Source: Escherichia coli (GTDB lineage: Bacteria > Pseudomonadota > Gammaproteobacteria > Enterobacterales > Enterobacteriaceae). From it: 64,000 bases of DNA. Shown here piece by piece: positions 1,398-58,872 of this stretch. Every line of letters begins with the position of its first letter. Position 1 is the first letter of the stretch. The stretch lies in NCBI GenBank assembly GCA_902499925.1, contig GCA_902499925.1_4130.1. One strand, given 5' to 3'. The position numbers and the translations under genes were made by a program. The notes beneath the pieces are model-generated. The model was not told the DNA's origin, ran no database searches, and worked only from the letters and a program-made list of their open reading frames with translations.

Positions 1398-1437
1398 TAT
1401 AATAGCAAAGGGACTGACCGGAGTCAATCCCTTTTTT
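1398..1437 (-). promoter_or_regulatory. terminator-promoter cassette (early-region variant)
   Basis: Minus strand reads GGGATTGAC-tccg-GTCAGTCCC then TTTGC-TATTAT. Confidence 0.5.
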
Positions 1438-4665: not shown

Positions 4666-4705
4666 ATATAATAGCAAAGGGACTGACCGGAGTCAATCCC
4701 TTTTT
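4666..4705 (-). promoter_or_regulatory. terminator-promoter cassette (early-region variant)
   Basis: Same element as 1398-1437. Confidence 0.5.
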
Positions 4706-8681: not shown

Positions 8682-8720
8682 TATAATAGCAAAATGGCTG
8701 ACCGGAGTCAACCACTTTTT
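8682..8720 (-). promoter_or_regulatory. terminator-promoter cassette (early-region variant)
   Basis: TGGTTGAC-tccg-GTCAGCCA then TATTAT. Confidence 0.5.
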
Positions 8721-15107: not shown

Positions 15108-15281
15108 ATATCCCATGACAACAGCTAACCCACCGGGTGCACAATTGTAACTATACTAAACTAATTTTTCTATAGATACACTCCCGCACCCTATGGGCTA
15201 CGGCTTATCTGCCAATGAATACATTATGCCAGTACTGACAAAATAAGTCAATACCGGCAATTGTAAAGATTTGTAAACTGC

Positions 15282-45030: not shown

Positions 45031-46581
45031 TTAAACTATTTCGGTAGCTCCATACTTAAAGTAAATTTCCTTAATCATTTCAAGATTATGGATGCTTGTA
45101 GTTTCAGACCAACCATCCTCCATCAATTCACGTTCAATAATACCTTTCGTATTATGGATTTTAATATTTTCAGTTTGAAACAGTTTCTTACATTCAGTTT
45201 CGGCAGCAATACAATCAACTGGATTTTCAAATTTAAAAGAGCTAATACGTTTTATATCATAATAACATTTTAAGTTTTGTTCATATTCACGACGACCGAG
45301 GATTGTTTCAATTCCATATTTTAGCCCAATATATTCACCTGCATTACATATACCACTAATATATGCAATTTTTTGATTGCGATGTGCCTTACGAGGATTG
45401 CCACATCCACGCAAATGTATAGATGGTGTTTGCCAGAATTCATCACCACTTTCTGGATCAATAATACACACATTAGTACGGGCATCAATATACTCTACTT
45501 TACTGTAATCATATTGTTCATCGTGAATTTCGTTAGCCCTGTTGATAAATTCATCAATTGACATTTTATTTTTCAGGCCAGTTGATATATTAGCACGATC
45601 ATTATTACCACATCCCATCAAATGTGATGATGGTGTTTGCCAGAATTCACCATATACTGGATCTATAATACATACCTTAGTACTGTTGTTTACGTATACG
45701 ACCTTACTATAATCATACAGATTATCATGCACCAAATTGGCCTTCTCGATAAATTCATCAAGTGTTAAGCGTTTACTCTGTGCCGTTTTTTCAAAACCAC
45801 GGATTGGGTTTCCATGACCTTTCCAATGGTAGATTGGTTCTTGCCAGAATTCACCATATACTGGATCTACAATACATACCTTAGTCCATGCACCAGTATA
45901 CTCCACTTTACTGTAGTCATATAAATGACCATGTACTGCACGAGAACGTTCAATAAAAACTTCGTTGGTGAATGTTTTATTTACTGAAGTTCCTATACGC
46001 CCACGTTCCATGTTACCATGCTTGGATTTTAAATGGTCATATGGCGTTTGCCAGAATTCACCATACACTGGATCAATAATGCATACTGGAGTTTTACTAT
46101 TAACATATTCTACGTTTGAATAATCGAACGTATTTCCAAAACGTTCGATAGCTTCAGCTATAAATGTTTCAGTTGTTTTTGATTTAAGTTTTTTACCATT
46201 TTCAATGGCACGTTGTGGGCTACCTGCACCTTTTAAATGGGAGCTGGGTTCTTGCCAGAATTCACCATACACTGGATCAATAATACATACCTTAGTGCTA
46301 TTATTTTTATAAACAACTTTACTATAATCATAGAGGTTGTTATGAACTTTTTCTGCTCGTTCTATAAACGTTTGGGTGGTTAATTTGCCAACACCTGAAC
46401 GATATGGATTCCCCTGACCGCGAATGTGATGTGACGGAGTTTGCCAGAATTCACCATACACCGGATCAATAATGCATACTGGTTCTTTAGCTTTTACATA
46501 CACTGCTTTTTCGTAATTATAGAGATCACCATGTACATTTCGTGCAGCAATTAAAAAAGTTTCTTGGTCGGTAACACGCAT
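45031..46581 (-). CDS. tandem-repeat protein (516 aa): six ~67-aa repeats plus C-terminal GIY-YIG-like region
   Basis: Repeat unit TxxFIERAxxVHxNLYDYSKVxY...KVCIIDPVYGEFWQxPxxHLxGxGNPxR six times; C-terminal AYISGICNAGEYIGLKYG...GRREYE...FKFE resembles GIY-YIG spacing; RBS AGGGATAAAGAAA. Confidence 0.65.
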   Translation of the reverse strand: MRVTDQETFLIAARNVHGDLYNYEKAVYVKAKEPVCIIDPVYGEFWQTPSHHIRGQGNPYRSGVGKLTTQTFIERAEKVHNNLYDYSKVVYKNNSTKVCIIDPVYGEFWQEPSSHLKGAGSPQRAIENGKKLKSKTTETFIAEAIERFGNTFDYSNVEYVNSKTPVCIIDPVYGEFWQTPYDHLKSKHGNMERGRIGTSVNKTFTNEVFIERSRAVHGHLYDYSKVEYTGAWTKVCIVDPVYGEFWQEPIYHWKGHGNPIRGFEKTAQSKRLTLDEFIEKANLVHDNLYDYSKVVYVNNSTKVCIIDPVYGEFWQTPSSHLMGCGNNDRANISTGLKNKMSIDEFINRANEIHDEQYDYSKVEYIDARTNVCIIDPESGDEFWQTPSIHLRGCGNPRKAHRNQKIAYISGICNAGEYIGLKYGIETILGRREYEQNLKCYYDIKRISSFKFENPVDCIAAETECKKLFQTENIKIHNTKGIIERELMEDGWSETTSIHNLEMIKEIYFKYGATEIV

Positions 46582-46614
46582 TTTCTTTATCCCTAGTACG
46601 TTTCATTTCGATAG

Positions 46615-46650
46615 AGCTATAATAGCAAAAGGGCTGACCGAAGTCAACTC
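46615..46650 (-). promoter_or_regulatory. terminator-promoter cassette (degenerate copy)
   Basis: Hairpin GAGTTGAC-ttcg-GTCAGCCC with one mismatch, then TATTAT. Confidence 0.4.
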
Positions 46651-46859
46651 TTTGATATGATAATATAATCATTCCATAAATTATATATATTGTTTTCAAC
46701 ACAATCATCATCGCTTAATTCTATAATTGACGAGATAAGTTCTGATAAGGTTTGTGTGTTCAAAACCGTATCACGATGTCTCAACCACCATTTCATGGTG
46801 AGTGTTCGGATTTTGTACGGATTGTTTGAAAACTTGTATCTAGAAGTGTCAAGTATCAT
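46644..46859 (-). CDS. hypothetical protein (71 aa)
   Basis: Minus ORF directly downstream of denV; ends at the cassette hairpin. Confidence 0.45.
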   Translation of the reverse strand: MILDTSRYKFSNNPYKIRTLTMKWWLRHRDTVLNTQTLSELISSIIELSDDDCVENNIYNLWNDYIIISKS

Positions 46860-46872
46860 TTTTAATCTCTAT

Positions 46873-47310
46873 TTACTTAATCATCTCGGTATAGTACTCA
46901 GGTAACTCAACATCAGTAAATTTATACCACTTAGGCTTCATTTGGAGCTTCTCAATCAAGCGTTCACGAGACATTTTAATCTCTGAATCAGATGGTACAT
47001 AGTCCTGGCAAAACTCCGCAGGGAAGCCGCTAATGTCGTTTAATTCAATGTTTTGAATCTTCATACCACGACGCAAACATTCGTTAACAATTTCAATATG
47101 ACGCTTCTGTAAGTACAATAACTTGTTGTAGAAGAATGTTACATGACCTGAACCTAACAGGTAAGTACTGTTAATTTTGAAATCACGTACACGCTTACGT
47201 GCTTGAACATGTTTTTGTACAGCACCAAATACACGTGGGAGTTCACGATATTCAGCCATCAGATGTTGGTCAGCAAGTTCTTTAACGTGTACTAAGTTAA
47301 TGCGTGTCAT
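46873..47310 (-). CDS. denV: endonuclease V, pyrimidine-dimer DNA glycosylase/AP lyase (145 aa)
   Basis: Colinear with T4 DenV as I recall it: [31 protein letters not shown]...KRVRDFKI...GHVTFFY.KL; RBS GAGGATGAATAC. Confidence 0.85.
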
Positions 47311-47338: not shown

Positions 47339-47376
47339 ATTATAACAAAAAGGGCTGACCGAAGTCAACCCTTTGT
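47339..47376 (-). promoter_or_regulatory. terminator-promoter cassette
   Basis: Minus strand reads GGGTTGAC-ttcg-GTCAGCCC, T-run, TGtTATAAT (extended -10). Confidence 0.55.
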
Positions 47377-47377
47377 T

Positions 47378-47800
47378 TTAATCATCGCCAAAATCATAAT
47401 GGTTCTCGTAAAAACAATCCTGACAGTAGTCACCATCATCACCGAATGCAGTTTCATTACGATATACTTCACTTTCTGGTATTTGTTTACCACAATCATC
47501 ACATGTACATAGTTTCATAAATTCCTCATTAATCAACAATGCACCCAACTTCACAATCTCATACCCATCCAGATAGCCATAGGAACACTCAGGTGTTTCA
47601 TAAGTTGAACCATCATGGATACCTTGGCATTGGCTTTTGGAACGTTCAAGCAATCGTTGCAGTACTGATACGTCATCAAGAACGTAATACAAGTTAGCAT
47701 ATGGGTCCGTCACAATACAGTACTTAAACATGCCAAATGTATCAATCGATTTTTCAACCTTAGCAAATTGTTTCTTTTCTTTATTATACAATGCGTACAT
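47378..47800 (-). CDS. hypothetical protein with C-terminal Cys cluster (141 aa)
   Basis: Track ORF 47378..47866 trimmed to MYALYNKEKK, which starts 1 nt after the stop of 47802..48173; CTCDDCGKQ...YCQDCF. Confidence 0.5.
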   Translation of the reverse strand: MYALYNKEKKQFAKVEKSIDTFGMFKYCIVTDPYANLYYVLDDVSVLQRLLERSKSQCQGIHDGSTYETPECSYGYLDGYEIVKLGALLINEEFMKLCTCDDCGKQIPESEVYRNETAFGDDGDYCQDCFYENHYDFGDD

Positions 47801-51700: not shown

Positions 51701-51740
51701 ATTATAGCAAAAAGGGCCGACCGAAGTCAACCCTTTTCTT
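51701..51740 (-). promoter_or_regulatory. terminator-promoter cassette
   Basis: GGGTTGAC-ttcg-GTCGGCCC, T-run, TATAAT. Confidence 0.55.
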
Positions 51741-52379: not shown

Positions 52380-52417
52380 CAATATTTACAAAAAAAGGTT
52401 GACCGAAGTCAACCTTT
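52380..52417 (-). promoter_or_regulatory. terminator-promoter cassette
   Basis: Perfect hairpin AAGGTTGAC-cgaa-GTCAACCTT, T-run, TAAATA. Confidence 0.5.
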
Positions 52418-52424
52418 TAAATGT

Positions 52425-53922: not shown

Positions 53923-54465
53923 TTAATCCTCTATCCATGTTTGATTGTATAAAATACGACGTATTGTTTTTTTACATACACGGTATTTATTACAATTTTC
54001 TCGTGCATATTCTATCACATCATTATAATTATCATTATAATCTTTTCTTATTTCTCTTACAATTTCCCATGTCAACACAGCAGCACCACGATTAGTTGTT
54101 GCGTTACCATGTGAATAAGAATATAGTACGTTTTCAGATGCTGTGTTCCATTCCAAATTCAAATAGTGATTGTTACTTCTATTACAATCTTTATGGTTTA
54201 TGTGAACAACTTTTTTCTTTGTTCTACTCGCCCACTGTAACTGTTTCTGTTTGGGTGGTGGTAAAAATGCTTCAGCTACTAGTCGATGAATCGCCTTTCT
54301 ATTTTTCACAGAATTGCGATACAAATCGACCTTCACATACCCATCTTTATTTTTAAATCCACAACTTATATATCCAGTTTGTTCGTTTCTTACTCTTCCA
54401 TGATCAGAAATTGAATAGTCATAATCAGGAATTAATTTCCAACGTTCCATGTTTATTTCTTCCAT
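53923..54465 (-). CDS. HNH homing endonuclease (180 aa)
   Basis: WKLIPDYDYSISDHGRVRN then HRLVAEAF and VHINHKDCNRSNNHYLNLEWNTASEN, the HNH_3 family pattern; start may be Met6. Confidence 0.8.
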   Translation of the reverse strand: MEEINMERWKLIPDYDYSISDHGRVRNEQTGYISCGFKNKDGYVKVDLYRNSVKNRKAIHRLVAEAFLPPPKQKQLQWASRTKKKVVHINHKDCNRSNNHYLNLEWNTASENVLYSYSHGNATTNRGAAVLTWEIVREIRKDYNDNYNDVIEYARENCNKYRVCKKTIRRILYNQTWIED

Positions 54466-54498
54466 TATATATAAAGGTTGACCGAAGTCAACCCTATT
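54465..54498 (-). promoter_or_regulatory. terminator-promoter cassette
   Basis: GGGTTGAC-ttcg-GTCAACC, T-run, TATATAAT. Confidence 0.5.
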
Positions 54499-55241: not shown

Positions 55242-55280
55242 ATTATACGACAAAGGGCTGACCGAAGTCAACCCCTTTTA
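55242..55280 (-). promoter_or_regulatory. terminator-promoter cassette
   Basis: GGGGTTGAC-ttcg-GTCAGCCC, T-run, TATAAT. Confidence 0.55.
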
Positions 55281-58835: not shown

Positions 58836-58872
58836 ATTATAACAAAAAAGGTTGACCGAAGTCAACCTTTAT
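58836..58872 (-). promoter_or_regulatory. terminator-promoter cassette
   Basis: Perfect hairpin AGGTTGAC-ttcg-GTCAACCT, T-run, TGtTATAAT. Confidence 0.55.

Follow-up and report, generated by a model that had tools for sequence, protein, structure and literature searches.

Genomic setting of the repeated hairpin

The DNA analysed here is a stretch of 64,000 nucleotides (the window) from contig GCA_902499925.1_4130.1 of an assembly filed under Escherichia coli. Its sequence marks it as jumbo coliphage DNA of the Asteriusvirus kind, belonging to the 121Q/PBECO4/G17 group with genomes of roughly 350 kb; the closest record, Escherichia phage EC.P1, covers 88% of the 40-64 kb part at 98.3% identity (megablast). 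A gene for a denV-like pyrimidine-dimer glycosylase begins at 47310 on the minus strand (Pfam Pyr_excise match, E 2.5e-15), and ahead of it lies a short element, the focal cassette, in which a hairpin followed by a T-run appears to be merged with a promoter. Eleven copies of this cassette are present in the window, one cluster at 1.4-8.7 kb and another at 44.6-58.9 kb, with none within 9-44 kb. The open reading frames (ORFs) near them are short, lie on the minus strand and mostly carry no annotation. A simple consensus scan and listing places about 45 near-consensus sigma-70 promoters on the minus strand of the window. In the related phage CBB, RpoD-like promoters are concentrated in the presumed early region (PMC5259590), and the promoter-dense minus-strand region seen here fits a presumed early, host-takeover region of the same kind. 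We estimate a probability of about 80% that each copy is a compact terminator-promoter cassette of about 55 bp belonging to the early-gene region and of the PeSL (promoter-early stem-loop) type.

A uniform family of eleven copies

Read on the minus strand, the eleven copies share the consensus RGGTTGAC-(UUCG/UCCG/ACUA)-GUCARCCY, followed by a T-run. A search with a 20-mer allowing up to three mismatches gave 10 minus-strand matches in the window against none in 100 shuffles, and a looser core pattern, TTGAC-N3-6-GTCRR, added the ACUA-loop copy 44670, for a total of 11, every one on the minus strand; the three plus-strand matches of the core search are simply the antisense of three fully symmetric copies. 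Not one of the 19 mismatches distributed over the ten copies from the 20-mer search falls within TTGAC or GTC. The repeated unit runs from an A-run through CATCAAC/CATCGAAAC past the -10 box, and the sequences flanking different copies are unrelated. It is therefore about 55-60 bp long, not roughly 40 bp as given in a preliminary description of this DNA. That description had also listed eleven positions, and these are accurate: ten of its coordinates lie 0-4 nt from the ends of -10 boxes and the remaining one, 52380, belongs to the copy that lacks such a box. Because copy searches, -10 geometry and chance tests all agree, we judge the description and its coordinates to be correct; its proposal that one element terminates the upstream gene and supplies the next promoter agrees with the cassettes in every prediction that sequence can address, the idea itself being already known.

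Promoter features of the cassettes

The 5' arm of the hairpin contains TTGAC(T), as first described: the -35 box reads TTGACT in ten copies and TTGACA in one. A -10 box lies downstream in 10 of the 11, all except 52412 (TATAAT in six, TATTAT in four, at spacers of 16-18 bp). Spacers measure 18 bp in five copies, 17 in four and 16 in two. Those ten copies match the consensus at 5-6 of 6 positions in the -35 box and again at 5-6 of 6 in the -10 box while also bearing a stable hairpin. For a correctly spaced -10 box matching at 5/6 positions or better to occur in 10 of 11 copies, the probability is about 3e-13 relative to the window background; with T-rich tails alone as background it is still about 5e-10. 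The TGn extension, which the preliminary description had called frequent, precedes the -10 position in eight of the 11 copies, and an A-run of 3-6 stands ahead of every stem, providing the AT-rich tract by which PeSLs are in part recognised. Early promoters of T4 are of the UP/-35/TGn/-10 type (PMC2988021), and the succession of A-run, -35, TGn and -10 in the cassettes matches the layout of the strong ones among them.

Further features lie beyond the -10 box. When 44 elements were aligned on it, positions 6-8 proved to be C/T, A (36 of 44) and T (33 of 44); such a Y-A-T, 7 nt past the box, is the expected transcription start site. A Shine-Dalgarno sequence with an ATG follows at 26-37 nt past the -10 box in six of the 11 copies, the others having longer or non-coding leaders. 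The spacer itself seems to be held constant, since in copies 4696 and 1427 an extra A-U stem pair is offset by a T-run one nucleotide shorter, and the spacer therefore stays at 17 bp. Finally, scanning IMG/VR with the 14-mer GTTGACTTCGGTCA returned at least 120 loci, most of them chance matches inside coding sequence and thus useful only as a contrast set; among the matches listed, a -10 box stands at the right distance in 10 of the 23 whose outer stem is complete, and in 2 of the other 98 (Fisher P 5e-7).

RNA hairpin and transcription termination

All 11 copies form a hairpin in the minus-strand RNA, with stems of 8-13 bp and 4-nt loops closed in the C(UUCG)G manner, and they have the sequence features expected of intrinsic terminators. 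The loop is UUCG, UCCG or ACUA, and the T-run described earlier needs the correction that it is only 3-4 T long in six copies. Folding energies range from -9.8 to -19.5 kcal/mol, with z scores of -4.2 to -6.1 in ten copies and -2.6 in copy 46647. The plus-strand versions are less stable (-6.4 to -14.0 kcal/mol), by 3-10 kcal/mol in seven copies and by 0.4-2.6 in four. As had been noticed from the sequence, several copies pair fully only as minus-strand RNA: in eight, a U.G wobble corresponds to a C/A mismatch in the plus-strand version. The tail past the stem is U-rich throughout, with at least five U within 8 nt in 11 of 11 copies. In ten of them (all but 44670) the stop codon of the upstream gene lies between a point within the 5' arm and about 21 nt ahead of the stem. 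Where this stop is a TGA inside the TTGAC of the -35 box, as in two copies (Table 1), the final codons of the gene thus share bases with the terminator's 5' arm and the -35 box.

Compensatory changes in the stem are seen in an alignment of 41 distinct elements taken from the window, three relatives, four named phages and IMG/VR contigs. In it, 94% of stem cells are paired, a percentage inflated by the pattern used for collecting the elements, which demanded TTGAC...GTCRR together with two outer pairs. The invariant core and some of the pairing are thus consequences of how the set was built, which is not true of the double-sided changes or of the wobble bias. Changes on both sides occur in 13 stem cells, a count reached by none of 500 shuffles, and they switch GC to AU or UA. 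The end pair of TTGAC and GTCAR is U.G in 34 of the 41 elements and U-A in seven. Loops are UUCG, UCCG or UACG (UNCG) in 37 of 47 related elements and GNRA in three, and both kinds are stable RNA tetraloops only as read on the coding strand. A terminator pattern scan picks up three of the copies in 1-20 kb and three in 44-64 kb, and the orthologous hairpins of phage G17 are annotated in its record as ARNold terminators. The remaining terminators of the window have stems unrelated to that of the cassette.

Besides the construction of the alignment, several observations weigh against the combined terminator-promoter reading. In six copies only 3-4 consecutive T precede a G or A, and termination at such short U-runs may be incomplete. 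With stop codons this near the stem, a terminating ribosome may hinder hairpin folding. Five metagenomic copies of hairpin plus -35 box, crowded into 2 kb of a 119-kb IMG/VR contig (L046, 10724-12560), have no T-run, so that the hairpin may be kept for a purpose other than termination. On the promoter side, a spacer of 18 bp is suboptimal, though four of the five copies concerned have TGn; copy 52412 is without a -10 box; and the leader of copy 54491 would be only about 6 nt long. Taken as they stand, the cassettes probably terminate transcription in part, and the authors of the PeSL work likewise used the term "attenuator". The L046 stems, for their part, run into CTTCTGGCATTAT (TGG-CATTAT) and look like a promoter-with-hairpin variant that is likely a poor intrinsic terminator.

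A proposed mode of action

The likeliest reading of these features would be as follows. Host RNA polymerase arriving from upstream would terminate, fully or partly, 7-9 nt past the stem, so that the release point falls inside the spacer or the -10 box of the next promoter, and the hairpin would also protect the 3' end of the mRNA. In the double-stranded DNA these bases, by their sequence, also make up a strong sigma-70 promoter: the upstream A-run is its UP-like tract, the 5' arm gives TTGAC(T/A) as the -35 box, the 3' arm and T-run form the spacer of 16-18 bp, and the end of the T-run yields TGn, followed by TATAAT or TATTAT. The host sigma-70 polymerase is predicted to start at the A of Y-A-T, 7 nt past the -10 box, so that the next small gene would receive a leader of about 19-30 nt that includes a Shine-Dalgarno sequence. 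Early genes, singly or in pairs, would in this way become insulated, self-sufficient and movable expression units, in which read-through is reset and the promoter is shielded from occlusion. Not every copy is expected to do both jobs: 52412, without a -10 box, is probably a terminator only, and 1427, 4696 and 8711, whose leaders are non-coding or longer than 180 nt, are predicted to drive short non-coding leaders.

Relation to PeSL elements and other known systems

In its sequence organisation, the cassette of the window corresponds to the PeSL element known from earlier work on T4-like phages. Repeated intergenic cassettes were reported for RB49/phi1 by Arbiol et al. (2010), who distinguished five subclasses by stem-loop position, one of them overlapping the -35 box (PMC2839356). 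Their lacZ fusions revealed terminator as well as promoter activity: an RB49/phi1 stem-loop terminated about as well as rrnB T1, and the promoters were so strong that clones gained mutations in the -35 or -10 box (PMC2839356). Comeau et al. (2014) extended PeSLs to the PST/T4 and nt-1/KVP40 phages, the latter type having A3-4G3-loop-C3T3-4 with TTGYVH-N17-TAWWAT (PMC4122927). Like the PeSLs, the cassettes are intergenic and combine a sigma-70-like early promoter with a stem-loop, an upstream AT-rich tract and a downstream Shine-Dalgarno sequence with ATG; they too occur in many copies among small ORFans, and in PeSLs as well the stem-loop can overlap the -35 box. With the nt-1/KVP40 type the likeness extends to a nearly identical sequence. 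The nt-1 element, read directly, is AAAAGGGTTGACACATGTCAGCCCTTTTTGTATTAT, and that of KVP40, which lies between ORF231 and ORF232 at the PeSL locus shown in Fig. 6B of PMC4122927, is aaaagggttgactacggtcaaccctttcttgtattat (also given as aaaagggttgactacggtcaaccctttcttgtattatagcttcatcgaaac); both have the stem, T-run, TATTAT and CATCGAAAC/CATCAAAAC leader in common with the cassettes of the window. The differences concern the carrier, here a Rak2-like jumbo myovirus of roughly 350 kb (Asteriusvirus) and not a member of the Straboviridae, and the uniformity of the family, whose -35 box is always in the 5' arm and whose loop is mostly UUCG. In the Asteriusvirus and GAP32 records consulted the hairpins carry a terminator annotation at most, and the papers on phAPEC6, fEgEco12 and UE-S1 mention neither promoters nor terminators. 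With the architecture known from PeSLs, the records limited to terminators and these papers silent, what is new is the host lineage and the uniform, fully overlapped variant.

Several other systems resemble the cassettes in part. C(UUCG)G tetraloops were reportedly first noted in T4 intercistronic regions, by Tuerk et al. in 1988. Canonical intrinsic terminators likewise have a GC-rich stem, a UNCG loop closed by C-G and a U-tail just past the stop codon, whereas the cassette stem is held to TTGAC/GTCAR and its tail leads straight into TGn-TATAAT, which makes of the cassette terminator, by its sequence, also a promoter. The early "uber" promoters of T4 (Hinton 2010, PMC2988021) share the four near-consensus elements for the host sigma-70 polymerase and the inferred role of catching that polymerase right after infection. 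They differ in their GTTTAC-like -35 box (TTTACW for PST/T4, PMC4122927), where the cassettes have TTGAC(T/A), and in that the A-run and spacer of the cassettes double as flanks of an RNA hairpin. Lambdoid morons resemble the cassette units in being small accessory genes organised as self-contained transcription units, but their promoter and terminator are separate, unrepeated and not thought to mediate mobility (PMC2839356).

Distribution among phages

The same element is found well beyond the window. In blastn searches with the 51-nt focal element, where the count for each genome covers only the places that blastn reports, 5-13 places per genome were found in Asteriusvirus, RaK2, GAP32, CBB, SE_PL, fHe-Yen9-04 and pEa_SNUABM_50, among the Rak2-like genomes listed, the figure for relatives of the phage being 7-13. 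Counts were 2-4 in KVP40, nt-1 and related Vibrio phages, and 1-2 in Aeromonas phages 65, AS-zj and their relatives. A 20-mer identical to that of the window is present in Vibrio phage D480 and Aeromonas phage 65. In CBB, the element again stands upstream of the denV homologue (protein start MTRINL), and the position ahead of denV is therefore conserved across genera.

Such a distribution invites the question of why units of about 55 bp are so well conserved and so often repeated. Recombination may be the main cause, the cassettes acting, as has been proposed for PeSLs, as portable homology by which small ORFs are inserted, deleted or swapped, in addition to their regulatory role; we regard this as possible but clearly less likely than not. 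It would account for near-identical cassettes between unrelated flanks, and also across different phage families. Part of the window (1-12 kb) is strongly mosaic among relatives, and PeSL mini-circles have been demonstrated for RB49/phi1 (PMC2839356). In 40-64 kb, comparison with G17, EC.P1 and fEgEco12 gives six indel breakpoints, of which three lie no more than 30 nt from a cassette, at 47377 (5' edge), 54473 (3' edge) and 44707 (27 nt upstream). One of these events, a 2.2-kb segment (44707-46894) missing from EC.P1 and fEgEco12, brings its own cassette, 46647, along with an altered denV 3' end, a 71-aa ORF, a 516-aa ORF without a significant Pfam match and a 65-aa ORF; G17 has other cargo between the corresponding cassettes.

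A closer look at the breakpoints tempers this idea. In the window, an HNH_3/NUMOD4 ORF (53923-54450, minus strand) missing from fEgEco12 follows copy 54491, and the 3' edge of that copy's hairpin is exactly where the sequence starts to diverge from fEgEco12. In EC.P1 (L002, 7248-7661) and fEgEco12 an HNH gene lies just upstream of the hairpin of copy 47368, a gene found in neither the window nor G17. The window has at this place a stretch of 160 bp (47384-47544) that lengthens the C-terminus of the ORF ahead of the focal cassette, ending in ...DDGDYCQDCFYENHYDFGDD; G17 lacks this stretch and EC.P1 has the HNH gene in its place, so that the spot directly upstream of the focal hairpin exists in three states. 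Two of the three cassette-adjacent indels are thus free-standing HNH homing-endonuclease genes, which insert into intergenic DNA by a mechanism of their own, and because of this (as seen in Pfam matches and in the annotations of relatives) we downgraded the inference of PeSL-mediated shuffling. Moreover, none of the three events is flanked by cassettes on both sides, insertions are in any case tolerated between genes only, and six breakpoints are a small sample.

A bolder proposal is that the cassette is a horizontally mobile module shared by unrelated phage families, the Rak2-like phages and the schizo-T4 phages of Vibrio and Aeromonas, and that immediate restart of the polymerase makes it a device for handing transcription from one early gene to the next in place of fresh recruitment. 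We consider this combination unlikely, and entertain it because both groups contain the identical 20-nt hairpin as well as an identical stretch of 28 nt, TTGTATTATAGCTTCATCGAAACAAAAC, spanning the -10 box, start site and leader. The latter is shared by KVP40 (L005:157-215) and a 355-kb IMG/VR contig (L085:2630-2690) related to Serratia phage BF, Erwinia SNUABM phages and CBB, and suggests either horizontal spread or a very strong functional constraint; it can also be counted in favour of recombination.

Restart may be taken by itself: a polymerase releasing its transcript at the hairpin could begin again on the overlapping promoter without leaving the DNA, and termination and initiation would then be mechanically coupled. 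RNA polymerase is known from single-molecule work to be retained on DNA after termination. In all ten complete copies the predicted release site falls inside the spacer or the -10 box. A 2026 preprint reports extensive promoter-terminator coupling in bacteria, with the end of one transcript and the start of the next closely linked, as in the cassettes (bioRxiv 10.64898/2026.08.19.745784). We nevertheless think such coupling improbable here. Two independent signals that overlap for compactness would leave the same sequence, and PeSL subclasses vary in the position of the stem-loop relative to the promoter, which implies that exact overlap is not required.

Two improbable alternatives: terminators alone or operators

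A case can also be made for the cassettes being terminators only, their likeness to promoters being incidental. The T-rich tail and AT-rich intergenic DNA would then mimic a -10 box, with TTGAC as mere stem. Hairpins with a T-run and no -10 box do exist, namely copy 52412 and a copy in fEgEco12 that follows a sigma-factor gene, and the G17 and GAP32 records label the hairpins as terminators alone. The statistics on the -10 box, TGn and start site contradict this explanation. T-rich tails were precisely the stricter background (P about 5e-10) against which the -10 boxes at 16-18 bp stand out; TGn in eight of 11 copies, Y-A-T conserved at the expected start and six closely following Shine-Dalgarno-ATG pairs have no place in it; and a mere stem would explain neither the absence of mismatches in TTGAC while the outer stem varies, nor a spacer held at 17 bp despite an added stem pair, nor the unrelated stems of other terminators in the window. 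We therefore reject it as very improbable.

Likewise very improbable, and also rejected, is the view that a dimeric phage or host protein binds the cassette as an operator over the -35 box to shut off early transcription, the RNA hairpin being needless: TTGAC-N4-GTCAA is indeed a DNA palindrome centred on the -35 box, the phage must switch off its early genes, relatives encode their own sigma factor nearby and the L046 copies retain the palindrome without a T-run, but TTGAC pairs with GTCAG in 34 of 41 elements (a wobble in RNA, an asymmetric half-site in DNA), the outer positions show compensatory changes (GC to AU/UA) where fixed bases would be expected, the stable UNCG/GNRA loops exist on the coding strand only, and a U-tract past the stem combines with a stop codon directly upstream.

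Implications

If the cassettes are the combined terminators and promoters that we propose, PeSL-type elements extend from T4-like phages to the Rak2-like jumbo phages of roughly 350 kb, and a nearly identical 55-bp unit would be in use across several phage families. Annotation as terminators alone would then overlook early promoters, about ten in each genome. Early transcription units would be marked out by the cassette in a poorly understood genome, more than 80% of whose genes have no known function, and the cassette might serve E. coli synthetic biology as a compact insulator-plus-promoter part. It would raise a new biological question only if coupling of termination to restart, or mobility across families, proved true.

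The individual copies and other motifs

The copies are listed in Table 1 in descending order of position.

Table 1. Cassette copies of the window, all on the minus strand; energies (kcal/mol) refer to the minus-strand RNA unless stated otherwise
Copy	Span	Hairpin (5' arm-loop-3' arm) and tail	Folding	Promoter	Upstream	Downstream
	58836..58872	fully symmetric stem AAAGGUUGAC-UUCG-GUCAACCUUU; 7-U tail	-13.3	TGT-TATAAT; spacer 18 bp	ORF stop TGA 58862-58864, within -35 TTGAC	ATG 58806
	55242..55277	GGGGUUGAC-UUCG-GUCAGCCC; tail UUUGUCGU	-16.9	TATAAT without TGn; spacer 18 bp		next long ORF at 169 nt; 37-codon ORF annotated between in EC.P1
54491	54464..54495	GGGUUGAC-UUCG-GUCAACCU; tail UUUAUAUA	-12.1	TATAAT; spacer 16 bp		HNH/NUMOD4 homing-endonuclease ORF, ATG 54450, 13 nt past -10
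52412	52386..52418	AAAAGGUUGAC-UUCG-GUCAACCUUUU; 7-U tail	-14.2	TGTAAA at -10 position; no credible -10 box		
	51701..51738	GGGUUGAC-UUCG-GUCGGCCC, two U.G pairs; tail UUUUUGCU	-18.0 (plus strand -10.1)	TGC-TATAAT; spacer 18 bp		ATG 51674
47368 (focal)	47339..47376 (47376-47339 reads aaaGGGTTGACTTCGGTCAGCCCTTTTTGTTATAAT)	A-run and hairpin 47374-47349: GGGTTGAC-UUCG-GUCAGCCC	-17.3; z -5.2	-35 TTGACT 47368-47363; -10 TATAAT 47344-47339; spacer 18 bp, ending TGT	stop TAA 47378-47380	denV-like ATG 47310, 28 nt past -10
46647	46619..46653	stem with one mismatch, GAGUUGAC/GUCAGCCC	-9.8; z -2.6	TGC-TATTAT; spacer 17 bp	71-aa ORF stop TGA 46644-46646, within TTGAC	516-aa ORF, ATG 46581
44670	44641..44677	ACUA loop	-17.2	-35 TTGACA, 12/12 consensus; TGC-TATAAT; spacer 18 bp		257-aa ORF, ATG 44612
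8711	8683..8718	GUGGUUGAC-UCCG-GUCAGCCAU; tail UUUUGCUA	-16.9 (plus strand -6.4)	TGC-TATTAT; spacer 17 bp		conserved leader motif CCCACAGGGTGC, then second promoter; next ORF at 183 nt
4696	4668..4703	9-bp core stem GGGAUUGAC-UCCG-GUCAGUCCC; T-run only 3	-19.5	TGC-TATTAT; spacer 17 bp		leader motif next
1427	1399..1434	hairpin to -10 identical to copy 4696 (35 nt); flanks differ	-19.5			leader motif

The leader motif that follows three of the copies belongs to a wider set. A motif of about 26 nt, CCCAYAGGGTGCRNRARTGTAWCTAT, starts on the minus strand at 15197, 8656, 6981, 4646 and 1372, each time 25-31 nt past a -10 box of the sigma-70 type; hairpin cassettes account for three of the boxes. 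It also follows hairpin cassettes in the IMG/VR contig L036. In at least the three cassette copies a second promoter lies 30-90 nt past the motif, and this succession of conserved motif and further promoter at 1427, 4696 and 8711 makes short non-coding RNAs possible; the sites may represent short non-coding transcripts or regulatory leaders. The leader after these three copies has a weak consensus structure (-4.6 kcal/mol, RNAalifold). A search of the whole window against Rfam at gathering thresholds, hairpins and leader motif included, gave no matches, and a scan for tRNA and tmRNA genes found nothing.

A second promoter family, of about 25 copies, occupies 1-18 kb of the minus strand and consists of aaagtacTTGCAA or TTGACA, N16 and TATAAT (for example at 8143-8116, 9181-9154 and 13341-13314). 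Many of its members have a hairpin in the 5' untranslated region, GGGGAGAA-nnnn-TTCTCCCC, 10-12 nt past the -10 box and without a T-run. In its arrangement this family corresponds to a subclass of PeSLs in which the -10 box precedes the stem-loop, and the 5' hairpin is possibly mRNA-stabilising or regulatory.

On the plus strand, 24548-41326 holds a series of paralogous genes coding for about 360-450 aa each, nearly all of them followed by a hairpin of one and the same terminator family, GCCAGTACTnnnGTACTGGC plus TTTT; there are 29 terminator-like sites compared with 8.4 expected. The AGTACT core of that terminator is found again shortly before many -10 (..agtactgTATAAT) and -35 (aaagtacTTGCAA) boxes of the minus strand and is possibly a protein-binding motif.

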